A stretch of 24,054 nucleotides of DNA. It comes from an uncultured Candidatus Saccharibacteria bacterium (GTDB lineage Bacteria; Patescibacteriota; Kazan-3B-28). The notes under the pieces were generated by a model. It was not told the origin of the DNA, searched no databases, and was given only the letters and a program-made list of their open reading frames with translations. Below, in pieces: positions 3,159-24,054 of the stretch (positions are counted from its first letter, which is position 1; the number at the start of each line of letters is the position of its first letter). The stretch lies in the NCBI GenBank assembly GCA_964461775.1, contig CAYWVE010000029.1:1-24054 (forward strand), read 5' to 3'. A program made the position numbers and the translations under genes.

Positions 3159-4670
3159 ATGCATCTCATCATTACCGTCTGCCTGGGCGTACTCGCCTAT
3201 GCAGCTATCGGGTACCTCCTGCTTGTGGCCTACATGTGGCGCTACAAGCGAACAGGGATCCTCGGCATCCAGCCCAGAAGCGTCATCTGGCGCATCCTGG
3301 ACTATCACTTCAATCTCGGGCTGTGTCGCTGGATGACACATAACACCAGGTGGGAAAGGAGGATAGCCGCGGACCCCAAGTATGGCAGCCTTTGCTACAC
3401 CTCGCTCGCCATCTGGTGGTTTACCCACCTCATCCCCCTCGTCACACTTGCATCCATCATCATTTACCTGTTTTTCTTCATCTTTATGCTATGTTGCGCA
3501 ATTGGAAATGCATTCGAGTACATGACCATTAAGGTACTCGGCAATCGGGCCAATCCAATCAACCAGTGGTGGTATCACCTGGGCTTGTGGATCAAGACCT
3601 CTTCAGCCGTCCACGCCCTGCGCACCCATACTGATCGCACAGCACAGGGATGCATCGCGGTACTGAAGTACCTCTGGCAGTGGCGACAGTTTATCCTGGT
3701 GGGCATCGTCCTCGCCTTAGCACTGGTAAACATTCTCTACGCTCACCTCAGCCCTGGTACCAGCTTTGGAATAGCAGCATTTGTTCTATTCCTCCTTGCT
3801 GGCCCAGCCAAGTTCATCTGCGCCGTAGCGTTCACCAACAAAGTAACTCTCGAACGCCGTCACCTGACAAACTTCATCGTCAGCGCTGGGGTTGTCTGCT
3901 TTGGGTGGGTCTTGAGCCAGCTCGGTCAACCTACCACACCCATCGACATCCAGGTACTCAACCCGACCATCCAAGGGCTTAGCTTTCTGGCTATCTCATT
4001 GATTTGGCTGAGCCTAGCGGACAAAACCTTTGGCGCTATTGGCCAATGGCACTACCACAACTACTATCTGATTCGCAGCCACACTCGCGATCACCCATTG
4101 CTCGGCGAAGATCTCCCAACCGATGCCCTGCGTCAAGCCTGGTATCAGCAGGAAGGCAACCCCAACGGCAAAAAGTTCACCAAGAACCAGAGAAAACAGA
4201 GGCTGGATACGCATCCACCCCTGACGCTCACAGACTTCTCGCTGGCTTGGTATCGATTCCGTTTGCAGCTCTGTGCCTCACTCCTCTTTACCGTAGTCAT
4301 GCTCATCCAGGTTCAGACACTCGGCTGGACTATTCTCTGGGTTATGGTCATCACCATCACTACCCTTGGCTTGTGGGTGGAGATGCATACCAGATGGTAC
4401 CAGCTCAACGATCCAGCCTCTCGGGACAATCTGATCGAGCGCTTCAAGCAAGAAGCTCTGAAAGATCTTGAAAAGGAGCTGCGTCCGTCCGCTGTCACGC
4501 CTCACCGCTGGCCAAGCGCGCAACCCAAAACTCCACGCCCCTACAAGCGCAATCGGCTCTATGAACTTCTCGATGGCATTGGATCCTGGGCCACCGATAC
4601 TCTAGACGGAGTCTGCCCCAAGGTAACCGTCACGATCATCCGACCCGACCCACCCGCGCCCAGCACCTAA
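3159..4670 (+). CDS. Polytopic membrane protein of unknown function (503 aa)
   Basis: Long ORF with its own promoter, SD and terminator. Roughly 8-10 hydrophobic segments. No family that I recognise. Confidence 0.85.
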   Translation: MHLIITVCLGVLAYAAIGYLLLVAYMWRYKRTGILGIQPRSVIWRILDYHFNLGLCRWMTHNTRWERRIAADPKYGSLCYTSLAIWWFTHLIPLVTLASIIIYLFFFIFMLCCAIGNAFEYMTIKVLGNRANPINQWWYHLGLWIKTSSAVHALRTHTDRTAQGCIAVLKYLWQWRQFILVGIVLALALVNILYAHLSPGTSFGIAAFVLFLLAGPAKFICAVAFTNKVTLERRHLTNFIVSAGVVCFGWVLSQLGQPTTPIDIQVLNPTIQGLSFLAISLIWLSLADKTFGAIGQWHYHNYYLIRSHTRDHPLLGEDLPTDALRQAWYQQEGNPNGKKFTKNQRKQRLDTHPPLTLTDFSLAWYRFRLQLCASLLFTVVMLIQVQTLGWTILWVMVITITTLGLWVEMHTRWYQLNDPASRDNLIERFKQEALKDLEKELRPSAVTPHRWPSAQPKTPRPYKRNRLYELLDGIGSWATDTLDGVCPKVTVTIIRPDPPAPST

Positions 4671-5110: not shown

Positions 5111-5854
5111 CTATTCAAAAAATTTCCTAATCCGCCGCCACACCCGTGGTTCTACCACTTTAGATAACCCCATGTGTCCACCCGATCGCAACATTACCGA
5201 GTCTGCTCCTGTTCGCTCCACTAGCTCATCAAGTGGATCCATAATGATAATCTCGTCATCTGCTGCATTTATAATCATCGTTCTGGCTCCCTCTATTTTG
5301 TCCAAAGATTGCATCGGATTATAAAATCCGCCTTTGGCAAGCTTGTCCCAGTCCTTTTTCTTCATCCGGTACCCATTACCAAACGCCATCTCCACAAACC
5401 GACCCAGCTGGCTCAATGGTTCGGCCGACTTTTCCTCTAGGCGCCAATCCAAAACCGGCGATAGCGCCACAACCTTGTGTACTCGCTTGTCACTCGATGC
5501 CTCTAGCACCGCCGGCCCCCCAAAGCTAGCCCCAATCAGATAAATCTGTGGCTTTGCAACTCTGTATTGCTTGTTGGTCCACAAATCCACAAAGCCCTTC
5601 TCCACACCAACAATTACATCCAATAGATCGCGAGTAGGCGACTTATCCAAAAACCAACCGTCACTTTCCCAGCTTCCTCGATACCGCCAATTGATCACCC
5701 AAAATCCCTGAGCTGCTAATTTTTCCAACACATCATCGCGCCTACCTGGGTAAGACGGCATACCCGCGCACAAAACAATTACCTTGCTAGTCTTGCGCGC
5801 GGGTACCACCACCTCCGCCACGATGTCTTTTGCAAATCGCGTCCGGATGATCAT
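5111..5854 (-). CDS. Alpha/beta-fold hydrolase (esterase/peptidase-like)
   Basis: Nucleophile elbow GASFGG, YRGSWES, candidate Asp in AADDEII and His in GGHMG. Confidence 0.88.
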   Translation of the reverse strand: MIIRTRFAKDIVAEVVVPARKTSKVIVLCAGMPSYPGRRDDVLEKLAAQGFWVINWRYRGSWESDGWFLDKSPTRDLLDVIVGVEKGFVDLWTNKQYRVAKPQIYLIGASFGGPAVLEASSDKRVHKVVALSPVLDWRLEEKSAEPLSQLGRFVEMAFGNGYRMKKKDWDKLAKGGFYNPMQSLDKIEGARTMIINAADDEIIIMDPLDELVERTGADSVMLRSGGHMGLSKVVEPRVWRRIRKFFE

Positions 5855-5863
5855 GCTTGTATC

Positions 5864-6400
5864 TTACAAACCAAAGTTAGCCGAAGCTCCAGCCCCACCT
5901 TGCAAACCCTGCAGCAATTCACTGAAGTCAGTAAATGTTACATTGCGTGGCTCCTGAAACTTGCTCTGGTCTACCTGCCACGGCTGGCACTCGTAGTTCA
6001 CATCCTCATCCAGATCAAACTGGTCGTTCACCGCAGAATCATCGGCCTGTCCTTCGGTACTCATCTTGAAACCCTGAGTTTCGCCATCTACCCACACGAA
6101 AGCAGTGTCATCTTTTACAATCACATGCCCAGACTCCCGGCCATCGCCCACCACTACCTCAAAGTCGCCACGCATCCGCTGCTGAGCTACAAAAGCCACA
6201 CCAGAAGATTCCTCACTCTCAAAAGTACACTGCTGGGCGGTACCCATACTCAGCAGCGACCGCAGACTACCCTGCGACTCTTCGGTTTGAGTATTGTTAT
6301 TAGCATTGTTGCTCTCTGCACCACCCCGACTCTGCAGCCCCGCCCACGCTACTCCACCTATCACTAACGCTCCAATTACATACAACCAGACATTGTTCAT
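5864..6400 (-). CDS. Membrane-anchored/exported hypothetical protein (178 aa)
   Basis: N-terminal hydrophobic anchor, N/T/E-rich linker, and a beta-rich domain with two Cys (QQCTF, YECQPW) and a DxSxFxxP motif. Resembles a family I associate with CPR genomes. ATG 6400 is preferred over TTG 6412. Confidence 0.78.
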   Translation of the reverse strand: MNNVWLYVIGALVIGGVAWAGLQSRGGAESNNANNNTQTEESQGSLRSLLSMGTAQQCTFESEESSGVAFVAQQRMRGDFEVVVGDGRESGHVIVKDDTAFVWVDGETQGFKMSTEGQADDSAVNDQFDLDEDVNYECQPWQVDQSKFQEPRNVTFTDFSELLQGLQGGAGASANFGL

Positions 6401-6437
6401 AAGAAATATCAAAAAGTTATTACCCTTAGTCTAACAC

Positions 6438-11359
<4,922 letters not shown>

Positions 11360-13034: not shown

Positions 13035-13065
13035 AAATAAAAGAGGGTGGCTACATAGCCACCCT
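13035..13065 (-). terminator. Rho-independent terminator overlapping pgk stop
   Basis: AGGGTGGCT-ATGT-AGCCACCCT (9 bp) followed by CTTTTATTT. Confidence 0.82.
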
Positions 13066-14321: not shown

Positions 14322-16142
14322 CTACAGATCCTTGATCTGCCCAGCTACCTTCTCCCCTACCACCTCGGCCAAGGCAGGCAGGCTTGCCTCCTTGACCGCT
14401 CGCATCGATCCAAAAGCCTTGATTAGCTTCTTGCGCGTCGCTGGACCCACTCCGGCAATTTTTTCCAGCTCTGATTCGCGTACCTTCTTGCGGGCTAGAT
14501 GTGTATGCAAACCCAAAGCAAACCGATGTGCCTCATCCCGGATCGTTTGCAACAGATACTTGGCTGGGGCATTGTTGGGCAATACGATCACTCCTCCATT
14601 GCCTGGCAAGACAATGTCATCTTTGGCTTTTGGCGCGCTATGATCACCTTTGGCTATCCCGATAATTGGTATCCCAATCGGCCCCAACGCCTGCACCACC
14701 GCATTTACCTGCCCCTTGCCCCCATCGATCACTATCAGGTCAGGACGCCGCGCAAACCCACTATCACTATCCAGCTTGGCAAACCGTCGCTGCAACACCT
14801 CCGCCAACGAGGCGAAGTCATCGGGACCAACCACACTCCGGATTTTAAATCGCCGGTACTGCTCCTTGTTCATCTTGCCCCCTTCAAATACCACCATCGA
14901 TCCCACCGAGTCTGTCCCTTGAGTATTCGAAATATCATAGGCCTCGATCCGATCCAACTTATTTAGCTTCAATAACTTCTCCAGATCCTTCACCCCTTGT
15001 TCATGTCCGCGCTTTTCCAAATTTAAATTCATCGCCAAACTCATCAACCGCAACCGAGCATTCTGATTGGCGATCGTCACCAAATCCCGCCTAGCACCCC
15101 TACTTGGATTTACTAGCTCTACCTGTCGCCCAGCTCGCTGAGCCAACCATTGCTCTAGCACCCCTTCATCGGCAATCTCTACCGGCAACAAAATCACCGG
15201 CGGGATCTCCTCGGTCTGCAGATAAAAATCCCGCATAAAAGCCGAGATCACTTCAGCATCGGTCATCTCGTACTGGCTATCCAGAGCAAATGTCTGACTA
15301 TTGAGCAGCTTTCCTTTCCGGACTCGCAAATACGCCACTACCGCCTTGTTGAGCTGTCGCTCAACCCCCAATACATCCGCCTGCAACCGCAAATTAGTCG
15401 AGACCACCGACTGCCGCTGCCCGATCTTTTCAATCGCCTCCAAGCTATCACGCAGCTTGGCAGCTCGTTCAAATCGCTTTTCGCCAGCCGCTTGCTGCAT
15501 CGCTTTTTTCAGATCTCGCGCTATTGCATCGTATTGTCCGCCAATAAATCGGATCACCTCCTGCATCACCGCTCGATATTCTTCGACCGACACTTTGCCA
15601 ATACACACCCCGCCGCAAATCCCCAAATGATAATTCAAGCACGCTCTCCCCACCCCCTTAGCCAATTTATCGTTACTAATTGCCTGCGGACTCGAACAAA
15701 TCGGGAAAATCTTTTTGATCAGCTTCAGCAAATCATATACCGGTCGACTCTCGATATATGGTCCAAAATACCGCGCCCCATCATTGGCCACCCGTCGAGC
15801 CAGTAAAATTCGCGGAAACTCTTCTTGCATCGTAATCCGGATATACAAATAGCTTTTATCATCCCGCATCAACACATTGAAGGGCGGCCGATGCTTCTTG
15901 ATAAACTCATTTTCCAAAATCAACGCCTCTACCTCACTCCGCACTGCCACCGTCTCTACTGCCGCGATCTTGGCTACTAGCACCTGCGTCTTGATCGACT
16001 GACCAGCAGGCTTAGCCCAATACGAAGTGACTCTTTTGCGCAAGTTCTTAGCTTTACCCACATACAAAATATCCCCGGCCTTATCCTTCATCAGGTATAT
16101 TCCCGGATCGATCGGAATCTCTTTGAAATTCGGCTTATACAT
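14322..16142 (-). CDS. uvrC: Excinuclease ABC subunit C (606 aa)
   Basis: GIY-YIG domain (PGIYLMKD...LYVGKAKNLRKRV), UVR domain, RNaseH-like domain (IEAYDISN, PDLIVIDGGKGQ) and HhH. I place the start at ATG 16142, because homology begins there and a terminator and extended -10 lie just upstream. The track's 58-aa extension to 16316 is rejected. Confidence 0.96.
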   Translation of the reverse strand: MYKPNFKEIPIDPGIYLMKDKAGDILYVGKAKNLRKRVTSYWAKPAGQSIKTQVLVAKIAAVETVAVRSEVEALILENEFIKKHRPPFNVLMRDDKSYLYIRITMQEEFPRILLARRVANDGARYFGPYIESRPVYDLLKLIKKIFPICSSPQAISNDKLAKGVGRACLNYHLGICGGVCIGKVSVEEYRAVMQEVIRFIGGQYDAIARDLKKAMQQAAGEKRFERAAKLRDSLEAIEKIGQRQSVVSTNLRLQADVLGVERQLNKAVVAYLRVRKGKLLNSQTFALDSQYEMTDAEVISAFMRDFYLQTEEIPPVILLPVEIADEGVLEQWLAQRAGRQVELVNPSRGARRDLVTIANQNARLRLMSLAMNLNLEKRGHEQGVKDLEKLLKLNKLDRIEAYDISNTQGTDSVGSMVVFEGGKMNKEQYRRFKIRSVVGPDDFASLAEVLQRRFAKLDSDSGFARRPDLIVIDGGKGQVNAVVQALGPIGIPIIGIAKGDHSAPKAKDDIVLPGNGGVIVLPNNAPAKYLLQTIRDEAHRFALGLHTHLARKKVRESELEKIAGVGPATRKKLIKAFGSMRAVKEASLPALAEVVGEKVAGQIKDL

Positions 16143-16150
16143 ACACACCC

Positions 16151-16159
16151 ATTCTACCA
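16151..16159 (-). promoter_or_regulatory. Extended -10 (TGGTAGAAT) 8 nt upstream of uvrC ATG; probable leaderless start
   Basis: Minus strand reads TG-G-TAGAAT-GGGTGTGT-ATG. Confidence 0.72.
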
Positions 16160-16161
16160 AT

Positions 16162-16186
16162 AAAAAAGGGAGGGCAGCGCCCTCCC
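16162..16186 (-). terminator. Rho-independent terminator ending the uvrA-uvrC intergenic unit
   Basis: GGGAGGGC-GCT-GCCCTCCC followed by TTTTTT. Confidence 0.88.
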
Positions 16187-16537
16187 CATCAACCTGACTC
16201 TCTGCGATAAACGCGTTGTAATCCGGAGGCACCAGTCCTCCCTTGATCTTCTTGGCTGGTAGCTGGATCTTCCAGTAAACTGGCAGCTTGTTTTGCCGAC
16301 CGGGATCGAGAACCACCAGGCGCTAGGCACTAAGTGCCACCGGGGTCTCAAATCAACCATAGTCATCCCACAAGCCAGCTCCTTCCGACCAGTTTGCCCA
16401 GATGCCGAAGATAGATCACAACAAGAGGAGACGACCATCACCGTCCACTTCGAGCTTATAGCTCATACTCAACGCTTACACCGAGAGGTATGAAGGTGCT
16501 CCTCCGACAAGAGTTGATTCTCTCGCCGGATTTACAA
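16162..16537 (-). ncRNA. Candidate ~375-nt structured non-coding RNA of unknown class
   Basis: Has its own promoter and terminator, and no convincing ORF. Nested helices include an 11-bp 5'/3' closing stem (16537-16526 with 16226-16216). G-U pairs favour the minus strand. No tmRNA, RNase P, SRP or intron signature recognised. Confidence 0.62.
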
Positions 16538-16577: not shown

Positions 16578-19409
16578 CTACCGCTTGAGCAGATCTACCA
16601 GATACTTACCGGTGTAGGAACCCTTCACCTTGGCAACCATCTCCGGGGTGCCCTCTGCAATGATCCGACCCCCCAAATCTCCCCCTTCTGGGCCCATGTC
16701 GATCAGCCAGTCAGCCGTTTTGATCACATCCAGACTATGCTCGATCACGACCATCGAGTTGCCTTTTTCGACCAACCGATGCAATACATGCAACAGCTTA
16801 TTTACATCCTCAAAGTGCAATCCTGTGGTTGGCTCATCCAATACATACAAAGTTCGGCCGGTTGCTCTCCGCGACAGCTCACTGGCTAGCTTGATCCGCT
16901 GCGCTTCACCTCCAGACAACTGCGTCGCTGGTTGACCCAGTTTTACATAGCCCAACCCCACTTCCAGCAAAGTTTCTAGCTTTGTCTTGATCGAAGGAAT
17001 ATGTTGGAAAAATTCGATACTATCCTCTACGGTCAGATCCAGCACATCTGCAATGTTTTTGCCTTTGTAGTAAATCGACAAAGTCTCCAGGTTGTACCGG
17101 CGCCCCTTACACACATCACACGGCACATAAACATCGGGCAAGAAGTGCATTTCAATCTTGATTACACCATCACCACGGCAATTCTCGCACCGACCACCTT
17201 TGACATTGAACGAAAAGCGTCCTTGCTTAAAACCGCGTGCTTTTGCCTCGGGCAGAGCCGCAAACATATCGCGAATAAAAGTAAACAACCCAGTATAAGT
17301 AGCCGGATTACTCCGCGGACTCCGACCGATCGGGGACTGGTCGATGTTGATGATCTTATCTATATGCTCAATCCCTTTGATCTCTTTATGCTTGCCCGGC
17401 AAATCATGTGCGCCATGCAATATCCGCGATAGCGATTTGGCCATAATGTCATTGATCAGGATCGATTTGCCCGATCCAGATAATCCGGTGATACAAACAA
17501 AAGTCTGCAACGGAATCTTAGCCGTAACTTTCTGCAGATTAAACTCCTCGGCCTCTACAATCTCCAACCATTTGTCATTTGGCTCTCTGCGCTTCTTGGG
17601 CACCTCGATCTTTCGCTTGCCCGACAGGTACTGGCCGGTTAGCGACCGGGGATTCTTCGCCACCTGAGCTGGCGTACCCTCCGCTACGATTTCTCCACCA
17701 TGCTTACCTGCCAATGGGCCCACATCGATCACCCAATCCGATGTCGTGATCGTCTCCTCGTCGTGCTCCACCACCAATACGGTATTGCCCAGGTCCCGAA
17801 GATTAGACAAAGTTTTGATCAAGCGCTGGTTGTCATGCTGGTGCAAGCCAATCGATGGTTCGTCCAATATATAAATTACGCCAGACAAGCCGGAGCCAAT
17901 TTGAGTCGCCAACCGAATCCGCTGCGCCTCTCCACCAGACAAAGTATTGGCCGAGCGATCTAGGGTCAGGTACTCCAATCCCACATTGCGCAAGAAGCCC
18001 AATCGTTCGTTGATTTCTTTTAAGATTTGTTTCGCAATCAGCTGCTGCTGATCCACCAGCTTGAGCCCTGCAAAAAAACCCACCGATAGTCGCACCGGCA
18101 TCTGTGCCGCTTCAATGATAGATTTGTCCCCCACCGTTACCGCCAATACTTCCGGCTTCAATCGCTTACCTGCACACTCGGGGCAAACCTTGGCAGTCAT
18201 AAATTGTTCTATCTCCGCGCGGATAAAGTCCGAGTCTGTCTCGCGGTAGCGCCGCATCAGGTTTGGAATCACTCCTTCGAACTGCACATCATATTCGTTG
18301 GTCTTGCCCGCGGGAGTCCGGTATTTGACCGTCACCTCATCCTTACCCGTACCATGCAAGACAATCCCCAGCGCCTTCTCCGAAAGTTTAGCTACTGGAA
18401 TATTCAAATCGATCTTGTATTGCTTAGCCACCGCCTCCAGTATTCGGCTCGACCATCCACCTCCAGCCGTCATGTGATTTCCCCATGGTCGCACCGCGCC
18501 TTCGAGCAAGCTCAAGTTTTTGTTCGGAATCAACAAATCCGGATCCAGCTCCATCGTGATCCCCAACCCTGTGCATCGAGGACAAGCACCGTGTGGACTG
18601 TTGAAGGAAAAGTGTCGTGGCTCCAACTCAGGGATGCTAATGTCGCACTTAGGACAAGACAAACTCTCGGAAAAAAACCAATCTTTGGTACCATCACTCA
18701 CCTTTAGCTTGCCATTGGCCAGCCGCAAAGCTGTTTCTACCGAATCCGACAACCGCGTGCGGTCGTCTTGGCTAGCATTAGCCAGATTCAACCGGTCCAC
18801 TACAATCTCGATACTGTGCTTTTTGTTCTTATCTAGCTCTGGCAGCTCATCCATCTCGTACAGGCTACCGTCGATCCGCACCCGAACAAATCCTGACTTT
18901 TTGGCCTCGGCCAACTCTGCCTTAAATTCGCCCTTACGGTCTACAATTACCGGGGCCAAGATTAGCCCCTGTTCAAATTTCAAATTAGTAATCTGCGACA
19001 AGATCTGGTCGATGCTCTGACGCACAACTGCGGCTCCACAGCTAGGACAATGTGGTATTCCTACCCGTGCATACAACAGTCGCAAGTAATCGTATATTTC
19101 GGTAATCGTCCCCACCGTCGAACGCGGGTTGGAGGACGAGGATTTCTGATCGATCGAAATCGCTGGCGAAAGCCCTTCGATACTATCCAAATCTGGCTTA
19201 TTGGTCAGACCCAAAAACTGCCGCGCATACGCCGACAACGACTCTACATACCTCCGGTGCCCTTCGGCGTAGATCGTATCAAACGCCAACGAGCTCTTAC
19301 CCGAACCCGATAAACCGGTAATGGTAACCAGTTTATTTTTGGGTATCCGGACATTAACATTCTTCAAATTATGTTCGCGCGCTCCCCGAACTTCAATAAA
19401 ATCGTTCAT
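16578..19409 (-). CDS. uvrA: Excinuclease ABC subunit A
   Basis: Two ABC ATPase modules (GLSGSGKSS and GLSGSGKSI; LSGGEAQRI twice; LDEP twice), zinc fingers, and N-terminal VRGAREHNLKNV. Confidence 0.98.
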   Translation of the reverse strand: MNDFIEVRGAREHNLKNVNVRIPKNKLVTITGLSGSGKSSLAFDTIYAEGHRRYVESLSAYARQFLGLTNKPDLDSIEGLSPAISIDQKSSSSNPRSTVGTITEIYDYLRLLYARVGIPHCPSCGAAVVRQSIDQILSQITNLKFEQGLILAPVIVDRKGEFKAELAEAKKSGFVRVRIDGSLYEMDELPELDKNKKHSIEIVVDRLNLANASQDDRTRLSDSVETALRLANGKLKVSDGTKDWFFSESLSCPKCDISIPELEPRHFSFNSPHGACPRCTGLGITMELDPDLLIPNKNLSLLEGAVRPWGNHMTAGGGWSSRILEAVAKQYKIDLNIPVAKLSEKALGIVLHGTGKDEVTVKYRTPAGKTNEYDVQFEGVIPNLMRRYRETDSDFIRAEIEQFMTAKVCPECAGKRLKPEVLAVTVGDKSIIEAAQMPVRLSVGFFAGLKLVDQQQLIAKQILKEINERLGFLRNVGLEYLTLDRSANTLSGGEAQRIRLATQIGSGLSGVIYILDEPSIGLHQHDNQRLIKTLSNLRDLGNTVLVVEHDEETITTSDWVIDVGPLAGKHGGEIVAEGTPAQVAKNPRSLTGQYLSGKRKIEVPKKRREPNDKWLEIVEAEEFNLQKVTAKIPLQTFVCITGLSGSGKSILINDIMAKSLSRILHGAHDLPGKHKEIKGIEHIDKIINIDQSPIGRSPRSNPATYTGLFTFIRDMFAALPEAKARGFKQGRFSFNVKGGRCENCRGDGVIKIEMHFLPDVYVPCDVCKGRRYNLETLSIYYKGKNIADVLDLTVEDSIEFFQHIPSIKTKLETLLEVGLGYVKLGQPATQLSGGEAQRIKLASELSRRATGRTLYVLDEPTTGLHFEDVNKLLHVLHRLVEKGNSMVVIEHSLDVIKTADWLIDMGPEGGDLGGRIIAEGTPEMVAKVKGSYTGKYLVDLLKR

Positions 19410-19440: not shown

Positions 19441-19905
19441 TTAGGCCTGCCTATCAATCACTAGCTCCCAGCTGGTTGGTGCCGGTGCCGGATTGATCCA
19501 CTGCCGCAACAATCCACCAGAATATTCTCCACACTTACCAAGCAGCAACGAGCCCATCAAGTACAAAATCACGCCCGTAATTGCCGAAGTGATCATCCCT
19601 TTAGCAGCACCAATCGAAAGATCACCCTTACCTTCACCGCCCGACAATGCATACATGATCCCCGCCGACATTACCATTAGCAGTGCTAGCCCGCCCACAA
19701 TTCTTCCCGCCGTTGTTACCATGGCGCAAATCTGACTATTAAAGGAGCCAAACTCAGTCTGCCCGGGCAATGCTGCCGACACGGTGGTCAGCGTGCTACC
19801 GGCATAAGCCAGCACCAGGAAAACAAAAACAATCAGCATGTACCGATACACCACCACAGCGTGAGTAGTCCACCAGCCCAGCTTGTCGTTCTTTGCTTTT
19901 TTCAT
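19441..19905 (-). CDS. VirB2/TrbC-like (T4SS-type) pilin precursor (154 aa)
   Basis: Signal-like N-terminus, then the two-helix pattern IVGGLALLMVMSAGIMYALSGG...AKGMITSAITGVILYLMGSLLL typical of CPR VirB2-like pilins. Start at ATG 19905, because the track start (19941) sits inside the promoter. Confidence 0.72.
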   Translation of the reverse strand: MKKAKNDKLGWWTTHAVVVYRYMLIVFVFLVLAYAGSTLTTVSAALPGQTEFGSFNSQICAMVTTAGRIVGGLALLMVMSAGIMYALSGGEGKGDLSIGAAKGMITSAITGVILYLMGSLLLGKCGEYSGGLLRQWINPAPAPTSWELVIDRQA

Positions 19906-19932
19906 ATCGGCCCATTGCCAAATACGCTGCTT

Positions 19933-19961
19933 ATAATACACAAAAAGAGCCCAATTATCAA
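19933..19961 (-). promoter_or_regulatory. Sigma70 promoter for the pilin gene (and probably uvrA)
   Basis: TTGATA (19961-19956), 17 nt spacer, TATTAT (19938-19933). Confidence 0.72.
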
Positions 19962-19991
19962 CCCCAGGGCTAATCTGACTGACAGATATTT

Positions 19992-20015
19992 AAAAGGCAG
20001 CTCCTTCGAGCCGCC
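19992..20015 (-). terminator. Rho-independent terminator after the DUF6915-like gene
   Basis: GGCGGCTC-GAAG-GAGCTGCC (8 bp, one G-U) followed by TTTT. Confidence 0.8.
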
Positions 20016-20032: not shown

Positions 20033-20572
20033 CTAGTTGATAATCCCGGTATCCAAGCCCCCTGTAAAGACAGGTGGAAGAAGCCGAGGAAGGTCGGGAG
20101 GAGGCTTCATCTCGCTCAGAGCCTTCTCCACCTCCGCTTCAAGGTCGGAATTGCCAGTCTCATCACTCGTCTCCTGCGCTTCCGCCACCACCGCTGCCAC
20201 CTGCTCCGCAATCCTTCGTCGACTCGATGGAACCGCTTGCCCTTTGGCGTTGTCCATCCAGTCAGCGAATGCGATGTTGGCCAACCAGTCCTGAACGGTG
20301 GGGATGAACAGCCCGCCATAATCTTCCAGTACATGCTGCTGACCGATCTCTGTCACCGAAATCTCCGTACCATCGGAGTTGGTGATGGAATCACCAAAGA
20401 TCTGCGGCAATATCGTGGTGATAAACCACGAATTGTGCGTCAGTGCCCGATGCCTGGTGTCACCCATCGCAGCCTGACTCGAATCGATCAAGCTATGAAT
20501 AGGCAGATAATCCTGAATGGAACCACCATGTCTGGCAACACTATTCTGAGAATGAAAAACTGGGTTACCCAT
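20033..20572 (-). CDS. DUF6915-like protein (His/Asp-rich, putative metal-binding) with acidic/Pro-rich C-terminal extension (179 aa)
   Basis: MGNPVFHS...HGGSIQDYLPIH..ID.S....D.RHRALTH...QHVLEDYG..FIPTVQDWL matches my recollection of DUF6915. SD AAGGGAG lies 7 nt before ATG 20572 but only 1 nt before ATG 20578. Confidence 0.75.
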   Translation of the reverse strand: MGNPVFHSQNSVARHGGSIQDYLPIHSLIDSSQAAMGDTRHRALTHNSWFITTILPQIFGDSITNSDGTEISVTEIGQQHVLEDYGGLFIPTVQDWLANIAFADWMDNAKGQAVPSSRRRIAEQVAAVVAEAQETSDETGNSDLEAEVEKALSEMKPPPDLPRLLPPVFTGGLDTGIIN

Positions 20573-20611
20573 GGGCATTCTCCCTTAGATGATCAAAGTA
20601 CAACTAGCCAC

Positions 20612-20640
20612 AGACTACAAGATCTCTACCGGGATAGCAA
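20612..20640 (-). promoter_or_regulatory. Sigma70 promoter for the DUF6915-like gene
   Basis: TTGCTA (20640-20635), 17 nt spacer, TAGTCT (20617-20612). The -35 is enclosed by an inverted repeat (20617-20626 and 20651-20660). Confidence 0.6.
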
Positions 20641-20702
20641 TACATCATCAGAAATCTTGTGCCCGTACCTTCTCCCCGTCGAGCCAATTGTGTCCGGCAA
20701 TG

Positions 20703-20971
20703 CTAAAAGTCCTGTCTGGCGTGGCCACTGCTTGAACCCGACCACCTTCCTGTTCCTGGAGGGGGTGCAGTGGACTTGTCCTGACTTTTAGTCAGGATTG
20801 GCTTTGCCAATCCACGGATGAGGGGGAACCGCTGGTTCCCCCTCAAGTTGTTTTTGGCCACTATGAGCCAAGTAAGAGGGTTTAGGATATTGCCTAACAA
20901 TTGGTGAGCGGGGTGGCCCAAGTGTTAGGTATTGGCCACACAATACCTAACTGGCGGGAGCGCTGCGCCAG
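20703..20971. repeat. Array of perfect and interlocking inverted repeats (hairpin array)
   Basis: Perfect stems at 20779-20797 (8 bp), 20795-20813 (8 bp), 20819-20845 (12 bp), 20924-20951 (11 bp), 20951-20971 (6 bp) and 20882-20897 (5 bp). Long-range pairs 20725-20731/20767-20773 and 20703-20711/20783-20791. Confidence 0.9.
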
Positions 20972-20981
20972 AACAACGCAT

Positions 20982-21006
20982 AGAAGAAAAGCGGCCTCTC
21001 GGCCGC
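20982..21006 (-). terminator. Rho-independent terminator of topA
   Basis: GCGGCC-GAGA-GGCCGC followed by TTTTCTTCT. Confidence 0.82.
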
Positions 21007-21013
21007 CTCCCTT

Positions 21014-21042
21014 CACTAGGTCACTAGTTTACTAAAATACTA
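21014..21042. repeat. Four copies of YACTA (minus strand TAGTR) at exact 8-nt period
   Basis: CACTA at 21014, CACTA at 21022, TACTA at 21030 and TACTA at 21038. Confidence 0.75.
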
Positions 21043-21048
21043 TTCCCC

Positions 21049-23250
21049 CTATTCCTTCACCTCGTACCCGCACTTAGTACACACCGGGTATCCTTTTTTG
21101 GCTGGCTTAGTCATAAAGCTACTACAGCTTGGACACTTTTCCTTCACGGGTTCATCCCAGGAGGCAAAATCACACGCCGGATATTTGTTGCAACCCCAAA
21201 ACACCTTGCCTCGCTTGGTTCGCTTCGTCACCAGCTTGCCCTCGGCACATTTTTGGCATGCGATATCCAGCTCTGCTGCTTTATTGGGCTCGATAAACTT
21301 ACATTTAGGATAATTACTGCACCCAAAGAATTCTCCAAACCGCCCGCGCTTTTTGACGATAGGCGAATCACACTCAGGACACTTGCGATCCGTGGTTTGA
21401 TCTTCGATCTTACCGTCGCTCCCCAACTGCCCCGTATACCGACACTCTGGGAAGTTCGAACAAGCCAAAAACTTACCAAACCGACCGGTCTTAATCATCA
21501 GCTTACCTCCGCACAACGGACAAACCTCATCGGTCTCTTCGTCATCCGGCCGCTGCTTTGCTACCTCCTGCTCCTTACTTTCCAAATGTTTAATAAATGG
21601 TCGATAAAAATCCTCGACCACTGGCACCCACTCGGCCTTGCCATCTGCAATGTCATCCAAATTATCTTCCATTTTAGCGGTAAAGTTATAATCAACAATT
21701 TCCGAGAAATGCTCCACCAAAAAATCATTTACCTGCAATCCCAGTGGCTGGGGAAATAGGGTGCGCCGTGTCCGCTCGACATAATTGCGAGTGATCAGAG
21801 TGGTAATAGTAGGAGCATAGGTACTCGGACGCCCGATTCCCATCTGCTCCATCTTTTTTACCAAACCAGCTTCAGTAAAGCGTGCCGGTGGCTCGGTATG
21901 ATGCTGGCTAGGTACTACCTCCAACAAATTCAGCACATCTTCCGGCTGCATCTCGGGCAATTCCGATTCCTGGAACGGCCATTTGGTTAGAATCTTGGCA
22001 AACCCAGCAAAAATTACCTGAGCACCACTAGCTCTACTCAATACCCCATCCGAATCGATTTTGATTTCTTGGGTTGCAATCCGAGCTGGCAACATTTGCG
22101 AAGCCATCAAGCGCTGCCAAATCAACCGATACAACTTGTAATGATCTTCGCTCACCTTACCGCGAATATCTTCCGGATGCAATTCAGGATATGTGGGGCG
22201 AATCGCTTCGTGGGCTTCCTGCGCACCGCGACTTTTGGTTCTATAAAAAATTGGTGCATCGGGCAGATACTCCGCTCCTACATTTTTCTGGATCCAGCCC
22301 CGCGCAGCTGCCACCGCCGAGCCCGCCAGATTAGTAGAGTCGGTTCTCATGTAAGTAATCAACCCCTTGGGTCCTGTACCATCCACCGCCAATCCTTCGT
22401 AGAGCTGCTGAGCCACCATCATGGTCTTTTTGACACTAAAGCCCATCTGAGTACTGGCCGCCTGTTGCAAGGTAGATGTTGTAAATGGGGGAGACGGCCG
22501 TCGCGTCTTTTCCTCCCGAGTCACTTCTACTACTCGATGATCCTTAGCTGCCTCAATCCGCCCCACCAACCCTTCGGCAGTGGCCTGATCGGCAATTTTA
22601 TCCAAACTATTCCATTCCGGCATTACCTCGGCGTGCAGTTCACCGCCACTCTGAGTGCTCAGCTTCACATCGATCCGCCAATACTCCTCTGGCACAAACG
22701 CCAACACCTCTCGCTCCCGCTCGGCCAATAAGCGCAATGCTACAGATTGCACCCGACCAGCCGACAAACCACGCATAATCTTTTTCCACAAAAAAGGGCT
22801 CAGCTTGTACCCCACCAACCGGTCCAACACTCGCCTGGTCTGCTGGGCATCTACCAAATTCATATCCAGCTGGCGCGGGGTTTCAAAAGCCTTAGCAATC
22901 GCCTCTTCGGTAATCTCATGAAAAGCCACCCGATGCAGCTTGGCTGGATCGGGTTTGATCACGCTCACAATATGCCAACCAATCGCCTCGCCTTCGCGAT
23001 CCTCATCAGTTGCTATGTATAGTTGATCACTCTTGGCCGCCAGCTCCTTGAGCTTGGTCACCTGCTTGCGGCTTTTGGTTGGGATCACATACTGAGGCTC
23101 AAATTTATTGTCTACATCTACCCCTAGCTTAGACTTGGGCAGATCTCGTACATGCCCATAAGAGGCTTCTACTACAAAATCTCGACCGAGGATCTTCCCG
23201 ATCGTCCTGGCCTTGGCAGGGGACTCAACAATAACTAAGTTTTTAGCCAT
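21049..23250 (-). CDS. topA: DNA topoisomerase I (type IA) with C-terminal zinc ribbons
   Basis: IVESPAKA, ATDEDREGE (TOPRIM), SAGRVQS, LITYMRTDS (catalytic Tyr), QEAHEAIRPT, GIGRPSTYA, and C-terminal Cys4 repeats. Confidence 0.98.
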   Translation of the reverse strand: MAKNLVIVESPAKARTIGKILGRDFVVEASYGHVRDLPKSKLGVDVDNKFEPQYVIPTKSRKQVTKLKELAAKSDQLYIATDEDREGEAIGWHIVSVIKPDPAKLHRVAFHEITEEAIAKAFETPRQLDMNLVDAQQTRRVLDRLVGYKLSPFLWKKIMRGLSAGRVQSVALRLLAEREREVLAFVPEEYWRIDVKLSTQSGGELHAEVMPEWNSLDKIADQATAEGLVGRIEAAKDHRVVEVTREEKTRRPSPPFTTSTLQQAASTQMGFSVKKTMMVAQQLYEGLAVDGTGPKGLITYMRTDSTNLAGSAVAAARGWIQKNVGAEYLPDAPIFYRTKSRGAQEAHEAIRPTYPELHPEDIRGKVSEDHYKLYRLIWQRLMASQMLPARIATQEIKIDSDGVLSRASGAQVIFAGFAKILTKWPFQESELPEMQPEDVLNLLEVVPSQHHTEPPARFTEAGLVKKMEQMGIGRPSTYAPTITTLITRNYVERTRRTLFPQPLGLQVNDFLVEHFSEIVDYNFTAKMEDNLDDIADGKAEWVPVVEDFYRPFIKHLESKEQEVAKQRPDDEETDEVCPLCGGKLMIKTGRFGKFLACSNFPECRYTGQLGSDGKIEDQTTDRKCPECDSPIVKKRGRFGEFFGCSNYPKCKFIEPNKAAELDIACQKCAEGKLVTKRTKRGKVFWGCNKYPACDFASWDEPVKEKCPSCSSFMTKPAKKGYPVCTKCGYEVKE

Positions 23251-23256
23251 AAAAGC

Positions 23257-24054
23257 TTATTTGAGCGCGAAGACTCCAGGCGCTACGCTTACGATCACGC
23301 CCTTCAGCTCCAACATAGTCAAAATACCCGAAGTCTTTGCAATGTCAAATTTTGCCTTCTGAGATAGGGGACTCACCTCCCCTATCCCCTCACCTAAAAT
23401 TCCACAAATTACTCGCTCGTCTTCAGTCAGCTCCACTCGATCCAACGGCAGGCCGGGAACTGGCTCTACCAGGTCATCCAAGCCGAGTACCGGACGAGCC
23501 CCTTCGGCAATCAGCCTATTTGGCCCCGCCGACATAATATTAAATATCGAACCCGGTACCGCCAAAACCTCACGATTATACTGCAATCCCAAGCTGGCTG
23601 TGATCAAGCTGCCCGACTTCTCCCCCGCCTCTACCACCAATACCTTGGCCGACAATCCCGCAATAATCCGATTGCGCATGGGGAAGGTGTGCCGTTGCGC
23701 TTGAGTACCCGGTGGATACTCCGATACCAACAAACCGCCTTTGGCCAAAATCTGACCCGCCAATCCCCGATTGCCAACCGGGTACACACTGGCCTCATCT
23801 ACCCCAGAGCCCAAGACAGCAATGGTAAGTCCATCTACCTTGATAGCTGCCAAATGGGCAGCCGCATCGATCCCATACGCCAAACCACTGACAATCACAG
23901 CATAGCGAGCCGCCTCACCCACCACCTTGCTTACCACTGCCAAACCATAACTAGTCGGTCGCCGACTCCCCACTACCGCAATCCCCATTGGGGCTGCCAG
24001 CAATTCCAAGTTTCCGCGAACATACAATATTTGAGGCGGATCAGCGATCTCGCG
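23257..24054 (-). CDS. dprA: DNA-processing protein DprA (5' end outside window)
   Basis: The frame stays open to the window end (REIADPPQILYVRGN). Contains AVVGSRRPTSYG, VSGLAYGIDAAAH, FPMRNRIIAGLS, EAGEKSGSLIT, VPGSI and a C-terminal winged helix. Sits in the usual dprA-topA order. Confidence 0.96.
   Translation of the reverse strand, partial: REIADPPQILYVRGNLELLAAPMGIAVVGSRRPTSYGLAVVSKVVGEAARYAVIVSGLAYGIDAAAHLAAIKVDGLTIAVLGSGVDEASVYPVGNRGLAGQILAKGGLLVSEYPPGTQAQRHTFPMRNRIIAGLSAKVLVVEAGEKSGSLITASLGLQYNREVLAVPGSIFNIMSAGPNRLIAEGARPVLGLDDLVEPVPGLPLDRVELTEDERVICGILGEGIGEVSPLSQKAKFDIAKTSGILTMLELKGVIVSVAPGVFALK

Follow-up and report, generated by a model that had tools for sequence, protein, structure and literature searches.

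A probable nested cluster of dispersed palindromic repeats in the spacer between topA and a DUF6915 gene of a Kazan-like bacterium

Introduction

What is a dense run of perfect hairpins doing between two genes of a small, tightly packed bacterial genome? The question is raised by a 24,054-nt stretch of DNA from an uncultured Candidatus Saccharibacteria bacterium (contig CAYWVE010000029.1, hereafter the window), in which topA and a gene of the DUF6915 family are separated by a spacer carrying an array of interlocking palindromes. The spacer is non-coding; it is bounded by the stop of topA (21049) and the start of DUF6915 (20578), two minus-strand genes. A preliminary description, made from the letters of the sequence, regarded the array as the possible cis-acting part of a module with the DUF6915 gene. 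We find that the feature is real and statistically striking, and that its explanation is an ordinary one: the array is probably a nested cluster of short, non-coding, dispersed palindromic repeats, comparable to REPINs (hairpin-forming doublets of repetitive extragenic palindromic, or REP, sequences) and to miniature inverted-repeat transposable elements (MITEs), in a Kazan-like bacterium of the candidate phyla radiation (CPR). A variable slot 3' of topA has accumulated at least three units, namely a foldback of about 155 nt followed by the hairpins h9 and h10, a triple hairpin of about 100 nt, and a 50-nt unit that we call module D.

Foldback MITEs, such as the Correia elements of Neisseria, the ERIC/IRU elements of enterobacteria and the Rickettsia palindromic elements, are non-coding, 100-170 nt long and possess inverted-repeat arms. 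They are dispersed, intergenic and polymorphic for insertion; a terminator or promoter is present in some of them, and certain copies are interrupted by an internal insertion. Repeats of the dispersed palindromic kind are, to our knowledge, undescribed in Patescibacteria/CPR, and a text search of the literature found no paper on them. REPINs, for their part, combine conserved ends with a variable spacer, show common compensatory changes and form higher-order clusters (PMC3116915).

Results

Hairpin content of the spacer

The perfect hairpins noted in the preliminary description are present in the spacer at the positions given there. Four of them, h2, h3, h5 and h9, are strong; weaker hairpins occupy 20854-20871, 20882-20897, 20893-20929 and 20951-20971, the last being h10 (Table 1). 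Hairpin content was compared with that of 2000 dinucleotide-preserving shuffles of positions 20703-20971. Not one shuffle (0/2000) matched the spacer in summed stem length, in longest stem or in the count of stems of at least 8 bp, and stems of at least 8 bp were observed in seven registers, compared with a shuffle mean of 0.04. No comparable hairpin cluster is found elsewhere in the window. The RNA fold of the spacer gives z values of -6.8 for the minus strand and -5.4 for the plus strand relative to shuffles, and the DNA fold of 20674-21034 gives a z of -7.7. Additionally, the word TGGCCA occurs three times where 0.31 occurrences are expected.

Copies of the modules in metagenomes

The modules that compose the array are multi-copy and mosaic. 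The copy evidence derives from Logan contigs and unitigs of the source soil metagenome run (X1), which contains 78% of the window's sampled words; these were placed on the locus, and depth is given as summed word depth. Over 20674-21034 the X1 depth is 20-119, as compared with 6-8 in the flanking genes. About 40 short X1 contigs lie on the spacer, of which at least 14 are at least 99% alike, and half of the contigs run into unlike sequence; loose ends with foreign flanks occur at 20674 and at 21033/21034/21042. The unique X1 contigs attached to other copies have a depth of 3-14, similar to that of the window's own genome, and the number of copies is estimated at 5-15, fewer than for classical REPs. 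In sludge metagenomes of two other studies (X2, X5-X9), the modules are found in other combinations and without the window's genes. Matches of the array to phage and plasmid collections were not found by blastn, and scans of viral contigs with five module patterns returned either no matches or merely unrelated coding ones of high G+C content.

A depth control over 20 kb identified the spacer as the only non-coding multi-copy stretch, the only other raised stretch being uvrA. At uvrA (16728-19395) the X1 depth is 19-34, many contigs are less than 90% alike and the loose ends are high in G+C, as though conserved uvrA sequences of other soil organisms had been cross-mapped here. Raised depth by itself is thus no proof of a repeat.

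Several of the copies reveal how the cluster is put together. In the commonest X1 form (depth 25), and also in X5, position 20742 is joined to 20853 by a 25-nt linker, TACTACAACATAAGAGTCGGGTGAG. When the left arm A, this linker and the right arm C are rebuilt with the window's letters, they form one hairpin of about 155 nt (DNA z -5.3, 0/200 shuffles) in which the arms pair over about 55 nt, being about 70% complementary, and the linker itself pairs with the end of arm A. No inverted repeat links the two outer ends of the cluster as a whole, at 20674 and 21034. The window copy of the foldback holds the triple-hairpin unit (h2, h3 and h5) in its tip, and in X8 the same unit occurs by itself, flanked on either side by foreign sequence. 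The core of this unit, 20817-20847 (h5), has an X1 depth of about 105 and occurs in six contigs with different flanks. The letters of the h2 stem differ among copies and are always palindromic: the stem reads TCCCGAC-TTTA-GTCGGGA in X6 and, with unchanged flanks, GTTTTAGC-TTTA-GCTAAAAC in X7, in the major X1 form (depth 35) and in L081, a contig of the closest relative. In the X8 copy h3 is deleted, and certain copies lack the T-run after h5. The modular 16-nt grammar that had been proposed for the chain is therefore peculiar to the window copy, since other copies lack h3 or have a different h2 stem.

The most abundant unit is module D, with an X1 depth of 90-119 over 13 contigs and at least six different flanks, the flanking contigs having a depth of 3-14. 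On the gene strand it begins 14 nt past the topA stop, its TAA, TAG and TGA cover all three frames by translation, and its terminator follows 42 nt past the stop. The module combines, after a stop and on the gene strand, the G+C-rich stem-loop and T-run by which intrinsic terminators are recognised, and we predict that it is a portable stop-plus-terminator cassette.

Two further sets of matches were considered. A variant of module A, GCTAAAACC (X5, X6; site 20702-20710), is complementary at 9/9 positions to GGTTTTAGC, which belongs to the alternative h2 stem found in X7 and in the major X1 form, and in parallel the window's CTAAAAGTC is complementary to its own GACTTTTAG. The match between GCTAAAACC and GGTTTTAGC could reflect either co-variation in a long-range helix or templated inverted copying; co-variation of module A with h2 was set aside, because the A variant occurs in copies without h2. 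Separately, the 21-mer GGGGGAACCGCTGGTTCCCCC is present exactly in 40 metagenome contigs (L083-L122) that are otherwise unlike the window, a number that seems far above chance. The matches listed all come from G+C-rich sequence, and several stand right behind tRNA-like or gene ends. These contigs were rejected as copies of the repeat, as they have nothing beyond the 21-mer in common, and the 21-mer is apparently a convergent, generic terminator hairpin.

Could the array instead consist of chance palindromes, or be an assembly artefact produced by threading the contig through repeats? The exact letters of 20606-20817 are absent from the X1 Logan contigs, and the depth of the h2 region is 0-4, both of which speak for such an artefact; 20606-20673 and 20776-20797 are missing even though the sequence on both sides of each is present. 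These gaps may have arisen because the window contig comes from a sister sample or strain, or because the assembler dropped low-depth unitigs beside hairpins. Overlapping X1 unitigs confirm 20818-24015 letter for letter, the only part so confirmed. Furthermore, contigs of X6, X8 and X9 have the h2-h3-h5 order of the window, and the occurrence of similar chains there shows this order to be genuine. That the two flanks are neighbours is supported by synteny with three relatives, and, as described above, no shuffle attains the hairpin content. Taken with these observations, an artefact or a chance origin is very improbable.

Table 1. Positions of the repeat units and adjoining features in the window
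Feature	Position	Strand	Description
Whole cluster of repeat modules	20674..21034		between the topA stop and the unique DUF6915 leader
Foldback left arm A	20674..20742	+	begins CCCCGTCGAG; X1 depth up to 89
Tip insertion	20743..20852		110 nt in place of the 25-nt linker of other copies
Triple-hairpin unit (h2, h3, h5)	20753..20849		independent dispersed element inside the tip insertion
Hairpin h2	20779-20797		8 bp, loop TTT; TCCTGACT-TTT-AGTCAGGA
Hairpin h3	20795-20813		8 bp, loop TTT; (GGA)TTGGC-TTT-GCCAA(TCC); GGA common to h2
Hairpin h5	20819-20845	+	12-bp G+C-rich stem, loop GCT
Foldback right arm C	20853..20913	+	ends GTGAGCGGGG; X1 depth 29-62; pairs with arm A
Hairpins h9 and h10	20924..20971		follow the foldback; homolog in L123, 16178-16243
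Hairpin h9	20924-20951		11 bp, loop of 6
Hairpin h10	20951-20971		6 bp, 9-nt loop GGAGCGCTG; one base in common with h9
Module D	20984..21034	-	three-frame stops (21034-21015), then terminator GCGGCC-GAGA-GGCCGC + TTTTCTTC (21006-20983)
topA	21049..23250	-	Pfam Toprim, Topoisom_bac, Zn_ribbon_Top1; core gene, stop precedes the cluster
Unique DUF6915 leader	20579..20673	-	ribosome-binding site AAGGGAGA, own stem-loop 20617-20660; outside the repeats
DUF6915 gene	20033..20578	-	Pfam PF21866, E 3e-34; phrog_8143; accessory

Empty and occupied sites in relatives

Contigs of the closest relative, L081 and L123 (about 75% nucleotide identity to the window), and other related contigs show that the units are present at some orthologous sites and absent from others. 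In L081, L082 and L125 the gene order dprA-topA-pilin-uvrA-uvrC is kept and both the array and the DUF6915 gene are absent from the slot; the similarity of the window to L081 stops at 21044 and resumes at 19946. Conversely, an element is present after ligA in L123 (about 16140-16470), where the window's own ligA spacer is merely 25 nt. This element consists of a foldback with different arms, followed by h9 and h10, and the foldback ends common to the window and L123 read CCCC.TCGA...TGAGC.GGGG. Such variation in occupancy between orthologous sites marks DNA that is mobile or, at the least, insertional. A dispersed MITE was among the findings that the preliminary description said would refute it, and the modules, multi-copy and with different flanks, are such a finding.

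The structure of the stems is kept through two-sided changes. A homolog of the triple-hairpin unit lies after uvrB in L081 (3584-3703; 48 bits, E 1e-9, with a covariance model made from the window copy alone), and in both genomes its 25 stem pairs are Watson-Crick without exception. Of these pairs, at least nine are changed on both sides by hand alignment and 14 by an alignment fitted to the structure, which leans towards structure; none is changed on one side. The h3 homolog, TCGGC-AAA-GCCGA, contains one two-sided change and the h5 homolog, TGAGAGGGAAAC / GTTTCCCTCTCA, contains two. For h9 and h10, comparison with L123 shows 16/16 pairs kept, five two-sided changes and an identical 9-nt h10 loop. 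Thus, over the five hairpins, 41/41 pairs are Watson-Crick in both genomes, at least 14 have changed on both sides, and there are no one-sided changes and no G-T pairs. Covariance models of h9-h10 and of the triple hairpin detected no further copies in L082, L125 or L126.

The topA-pilin slot is a hot spot for various small accessory genes. In L081 it (7956-8400) contains an unrelated terminator, the perfect palindrome AAAATCCCAGCCAATTGGCTGGGATTTT, and, on the opposite strand, a Cys-rich open reading frame (ORF) of 91 aa without a Pfam match. The ligA-dgkA interval is also variable: that of the window (5111-6437) encodes an uncharacterised 182-aa protein and an alpha/beta hydrolase, and L123 (16111-17063) has the palindromic element and a 183-aa unknown that is unrelated to the window's 182-aa protein (BLASTP E 0.19). 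Elsewhere, a 9-bp terminator-like hairpin is orthologous between the window (13044-13065) and L081 (14939-14960), its outer pair having changed from A-T to T-A; ordinary locus-specific hairpins therefore stay in place in this lineage, unlike the array.

Such slots invite comparison with integron attC sites, and the units could be attC-like single-strand sites, recognised by shape, at which an integron-like system captures cassettes and inserts accessory genes such as DUF6915 between core genes. Two of the three elements do have a core gene on one side and, on the other, a non-conserved gene of the same direction (topA-element-DUF6915, and ligA-element-183-aa unknown in L123), the topA and ligA slots both vary between relatives, the ends of the foldback are conserved around a variable stem and a tip that ranges from 25 nt to 110 nt, both genomes have one strand that folds better than the other, and RYYYAAC and GTTRRRY words flank 20891-20930 (20891-97 and 20924-30). 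We nevertheless consider this origin quite improbable. No integrase was found in the window (Pfam, 16 of the larger ORFs), the copy behind uvrB in L081, the third of the three, is not accompanied by an accessory gene, and DUF6915 loci elsewhere have no such element. The modules are scattered singly rather than arrayed beside an integrase, and extrahelical bases were not identified (no search with an attC model was made). In attC sites R''/R' boxes close an imperfect hairpin of 57-141 nt, whereas the RYYYAAC...GTTRRRY pair of the window spans just 40 nt and is not kept in L123.

Strand preference and the case for a structured RNA

The preliminary description leaned towards a single-strand hairpin substrate at the level of DNA, and the comparison agrees with this: with 41 of 41 pairs Watson-Crick and at least 14 two-sided changes, no G-T pair was encountered. 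Such a record fits strict DNA complementarity, or the copying of one arm from the other. The foldback arms do contain G-T pairs, and these favour the plus strand by 7 to 2 in the window and the homologous strand by 5 to 1 in L123 (12 versus 3 when pooled; estimated p about 0.035, two-sided binomial), in accord with the earlier suggestion that a long-range domain would suit the plus strand. In both genomes the favoured strand is antisense to the flanking genes. Additionally, h5 together with AGTTGTTTTT scored as a plus-strand terminator-like site, and the L081 copy has AAGATTTATTTT where the window has AGTTGTTTTT after h5. The G-T bias of the foldback, the orientation of the units and the h5 terminator score point to a single-stranded form of one strand, whether single-stranded DNA or RNA.

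A structured RNA family transcribed from one fixed strand has accordingly to be weighed, either as a 3'-UTR (untranslated region) stabiliser or terminator or as plus-strand small RNAs ending at 20819-45 and its U-run. Selection would in that case work on the folding of the RNA. The strong fold on both strands would suit it, as would a structure kept with two-sided changes, the invariant 9-nt loop of h10, the plus-strand preference of G-U pairs in the foldback arms of both genomes, the h5 terminator score with AAGATTTATTTT at the same place in L081, and the fact that each unit is oriented alike to its neighbouring genes in the window and in L081/L123. The total lack of G-U among 41 stem pairs and at least 14 changed pairs would be unusual for an evolving RNA helix, however, and the copies are mosaic, with h3 deleted in X8, a tip of either 25 nt or 110 nt, and the T-run after h5 missing in some of them. 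On the gene strand the units are located downstream of topA's terminator. Rfam gave no match in the window at the gathering score; the best match of a lenient search reached 24 bits, compared with a gathering score of 114, and covered the module D hairpins rather than the hairpin chain. No tRNA or tmRNA was found, and no RNA run was found to contain the locus. We regard an RNA family as unlikely.

The DUF6915 gene and its leader

The array stands upstream of the DUF6915 gene on the same strand, and it could have been a cis-regulatory leader (a riboswitch or two-state switch) or a cis partner specific to that gene. An alternative 9-nt pairing, 20703-11 with 20783-91, does exist, and it had been taken to suggest a two-state switch; at least one such long-range 9-mer was obtained in 306 of 1000 shuffles, and the pairing is at chance level. 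Linkage was checked by a homolog search, an alignment, and inspection of the 400 nt upstream of 80 homolog loci from many phyla. None of the 80 loci showed upstream similarity to the array or a hairpin array of any kind. Perfect hairpins of at least 8 bp were absent from 68/80, numbered one in 11/80 and two in 1/80, and most of the loci have a spacer of less than 100 nt. The modules are multi-copy while DUF6915 is single-copy (depth 7.7 in X1), which together with the 80 loci refutes the proposed module of hairpin array and DUF6915. Homologous units in L081/L123 adjoin uvrB and ligA, unrelated genes with no DUF6915 nearby, and the tie of the array to DUF6915 is lost there as well. Finally, a unique leader of 95 nt without multi-copy signal separates the cluster from the start codon. 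A leader or partner specific to DUF6915 is, on this evidence, extremely improbable.

At 19987-20014 the DUF6915 gene has a terminator-like hairpin of its own. Members of the family, which is associated with phages (phrog_8143), occur patchily in Bacteroidota, Patescibacteria, Planctomycetota, Proteobacteria and Deinococcus and on a Sphingobium plasmid. An AlphaFold model of the protein is confident and mostly helical (mean pLDDT, the predicted local distance difference test score, 88), and has neither a similar solved structure (best Foldseek E 2) nor a sequence match in the Protein Data Bank (PDB); lacking a PDB neighbour, the model provides no functional lead. The invariant His, Asp and Glu residues of the family (IH, D, HR, H, QHVLED) suggest a metal site.

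Neighbouring loci

The minus-strand gene run comprises dprA (24027-23257), topA (23250-21049), the 470-nt spacer, the DUF6915 gene (20578-20033) and then a membrane-protein gene; this small membrane protein gene (19941-19441) is followed on the same strand by uvrA and uvrC. Elsewhere the window contains tightly packed ligA, pgk, gatA and dgkA. Small ORFs of the spacer have no Pfam match. The membrane-protein gene, previously called a pilin, encodes a two-helix membrane protein (19441-19941, minus) whose homolog in L125 (1984-2358) has a weak T4SS_pilin (PF18895) match; it is not a type IV pilin. The sequence TTTTTGTGTATTATAAGCAGCGTATTTGG upstream of it, conserved with L081, looks like a promoter of that gene. 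A lineage-specific sigma-like protein of the window has its closest named relatives in 'candidate division Kazan' and Patescibacteria, which assigns the contig to a CPR bacterium. A 503-aa ORF (3159-4670, plus) lies on the opposite strand between dgkA and gatC, has no Pfam or PHROG match and has no counterpart at that place in the relatives L126 and L123; it is probably another lineage-specific insertion.

Discussion

We propose that the array in the spacer is probably a nested cluster of dispersed palindromic repeats. Multi-copy, mosaic modules, stems kept through two-sided changes, and sites that are filled in one genome and empty in a relative are the observations on which this proposal rests. 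Several points weigh against it. The copy numbers are summed unitig depths, part of which may stem from co-occurring relatives rather than from one genome, and the 30-letter loose ends of short unitigs define neither a target-site duplication nor exact element ends. No conserved GTAG-type head was seen beside h2, h3, h5, h9 or h10, and full copies are few. Within the window, no transposase or recombinase gene was found (Pfam, 16 of the larger ORFs). By plain alignment the complementarity of arms A and C in the window is marginal (33 compared with 21.7 +/- 4.2, z 2.7). Two other facts would also be compatible with a transcribed RNA element: h5 has a T-run on the plus strand, and each unit faces the same way with respect to its neighbouring genes in both genomes, although two units in two genomes are weak evidence.

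How might these repeats have spread and been maintained? The units may move as folded single-stranded DNA hairpins that are recognised by shape, and recognition of single strands by shape would keep every stem Watson-Crick even as its letters change. The mobilising enzyme, whose gene would lie elsewhere in the genome, would be a transposase or recombinase, HUH- or RAYT-like (RAYT, REP-associated tyrosine transposase) or of another type. The units would accumulate in slots where accessory genes also land. Module D may now end the topA transcript, and the hairpins may, as a by-product, terminate transcription or insulate topA from the DUF6915 gene, a recent acquisition.

Among known systems, REP and REPIN sequences and their clusters (bacterial interspersed mosaic elements, or BIMEs), mobilised by RAYTs, which resemble the HUH enzymes of IS200/IS605, offer the closest parallel in several respects. 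Both are short extragenic palindromes, with many copies per genome and a frequent location just past stop codons. In REP doublets, conserved ends and a variable spacer make up one long hairpin, as they do in the foldback of arm A, linker and arm C, whose ends recur in L123. Compensatory changes on both arms and clustering are features of both, the two-sided changes being found here in five hairpins, and the presumed active form of REPs is single-stranded, in keeping with the better folding of one strand in our units. The differences are that no RAYT gene is located in the 24 kb of the window, no GTAG-like conserved head is seen, there are about 5-15 copies rather than hundreds, the host belongs to the CPR, and several unrelated units are nested in one another. 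We consider it rather likely that the units work like REPINs. Membership proper is not claimed, since no RAYT gene was found in the window and no head motif was seen beside the hairpins.

Foldback MITEs resemble the cluster in size, arms, intergenic dispersal, insertion polymorphism, a terminator and an internal insertion. The arms described here are only about 70% complementary, however, the data define neither target-site duplications nor terminal inverted repeats, there is no sequence similarity to the Correia, ERIC/IRU or Rickettsia families, and no partner DDE transposase is known. Integron attC sites would share with the foldback a recognition by fold, conserved closing boxes, a variable terminal structure, one active strand and a position beside accessory genes; they differ in that the window has no integrase and no array of sites, in that the small hairpins are perfect, and in that the modules occur without cassettes. 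Intrinsic terminators are matched by the G+C-rich stem and T-run of module D, 42 nt past the topA stop, and by the plus-strand T-run of h5. Ordinary terminators are single-copy and locus-specific, such as the unrelated AAAATCCCAGCCAATTGGCTGGGATTTT of the L081 slot, whereas module D is itself a dispersed repeat of about 50 nt with built-in three-frame stops.

These findings reveal no new mechanism and no function of DUF6915. Their interest lies in the organism: Patescibacteria genomes are tiny and tightly packed, and here an episymbiont of the 1-Mb class tolerates several families of hairpin repeats and keeps them in shape. The repeats provide a handle on mobile DNA and on strain typing in this uncultured group, and they carry a warning for assemblers and annotators that such spacers are repeat junctions rather than unique regulatory RNAs. 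With perfect Watson-Crick covariation and no G-T pairs, they also constitute a natural data set for asking whether hairpins are selected as DNA or as RNA.

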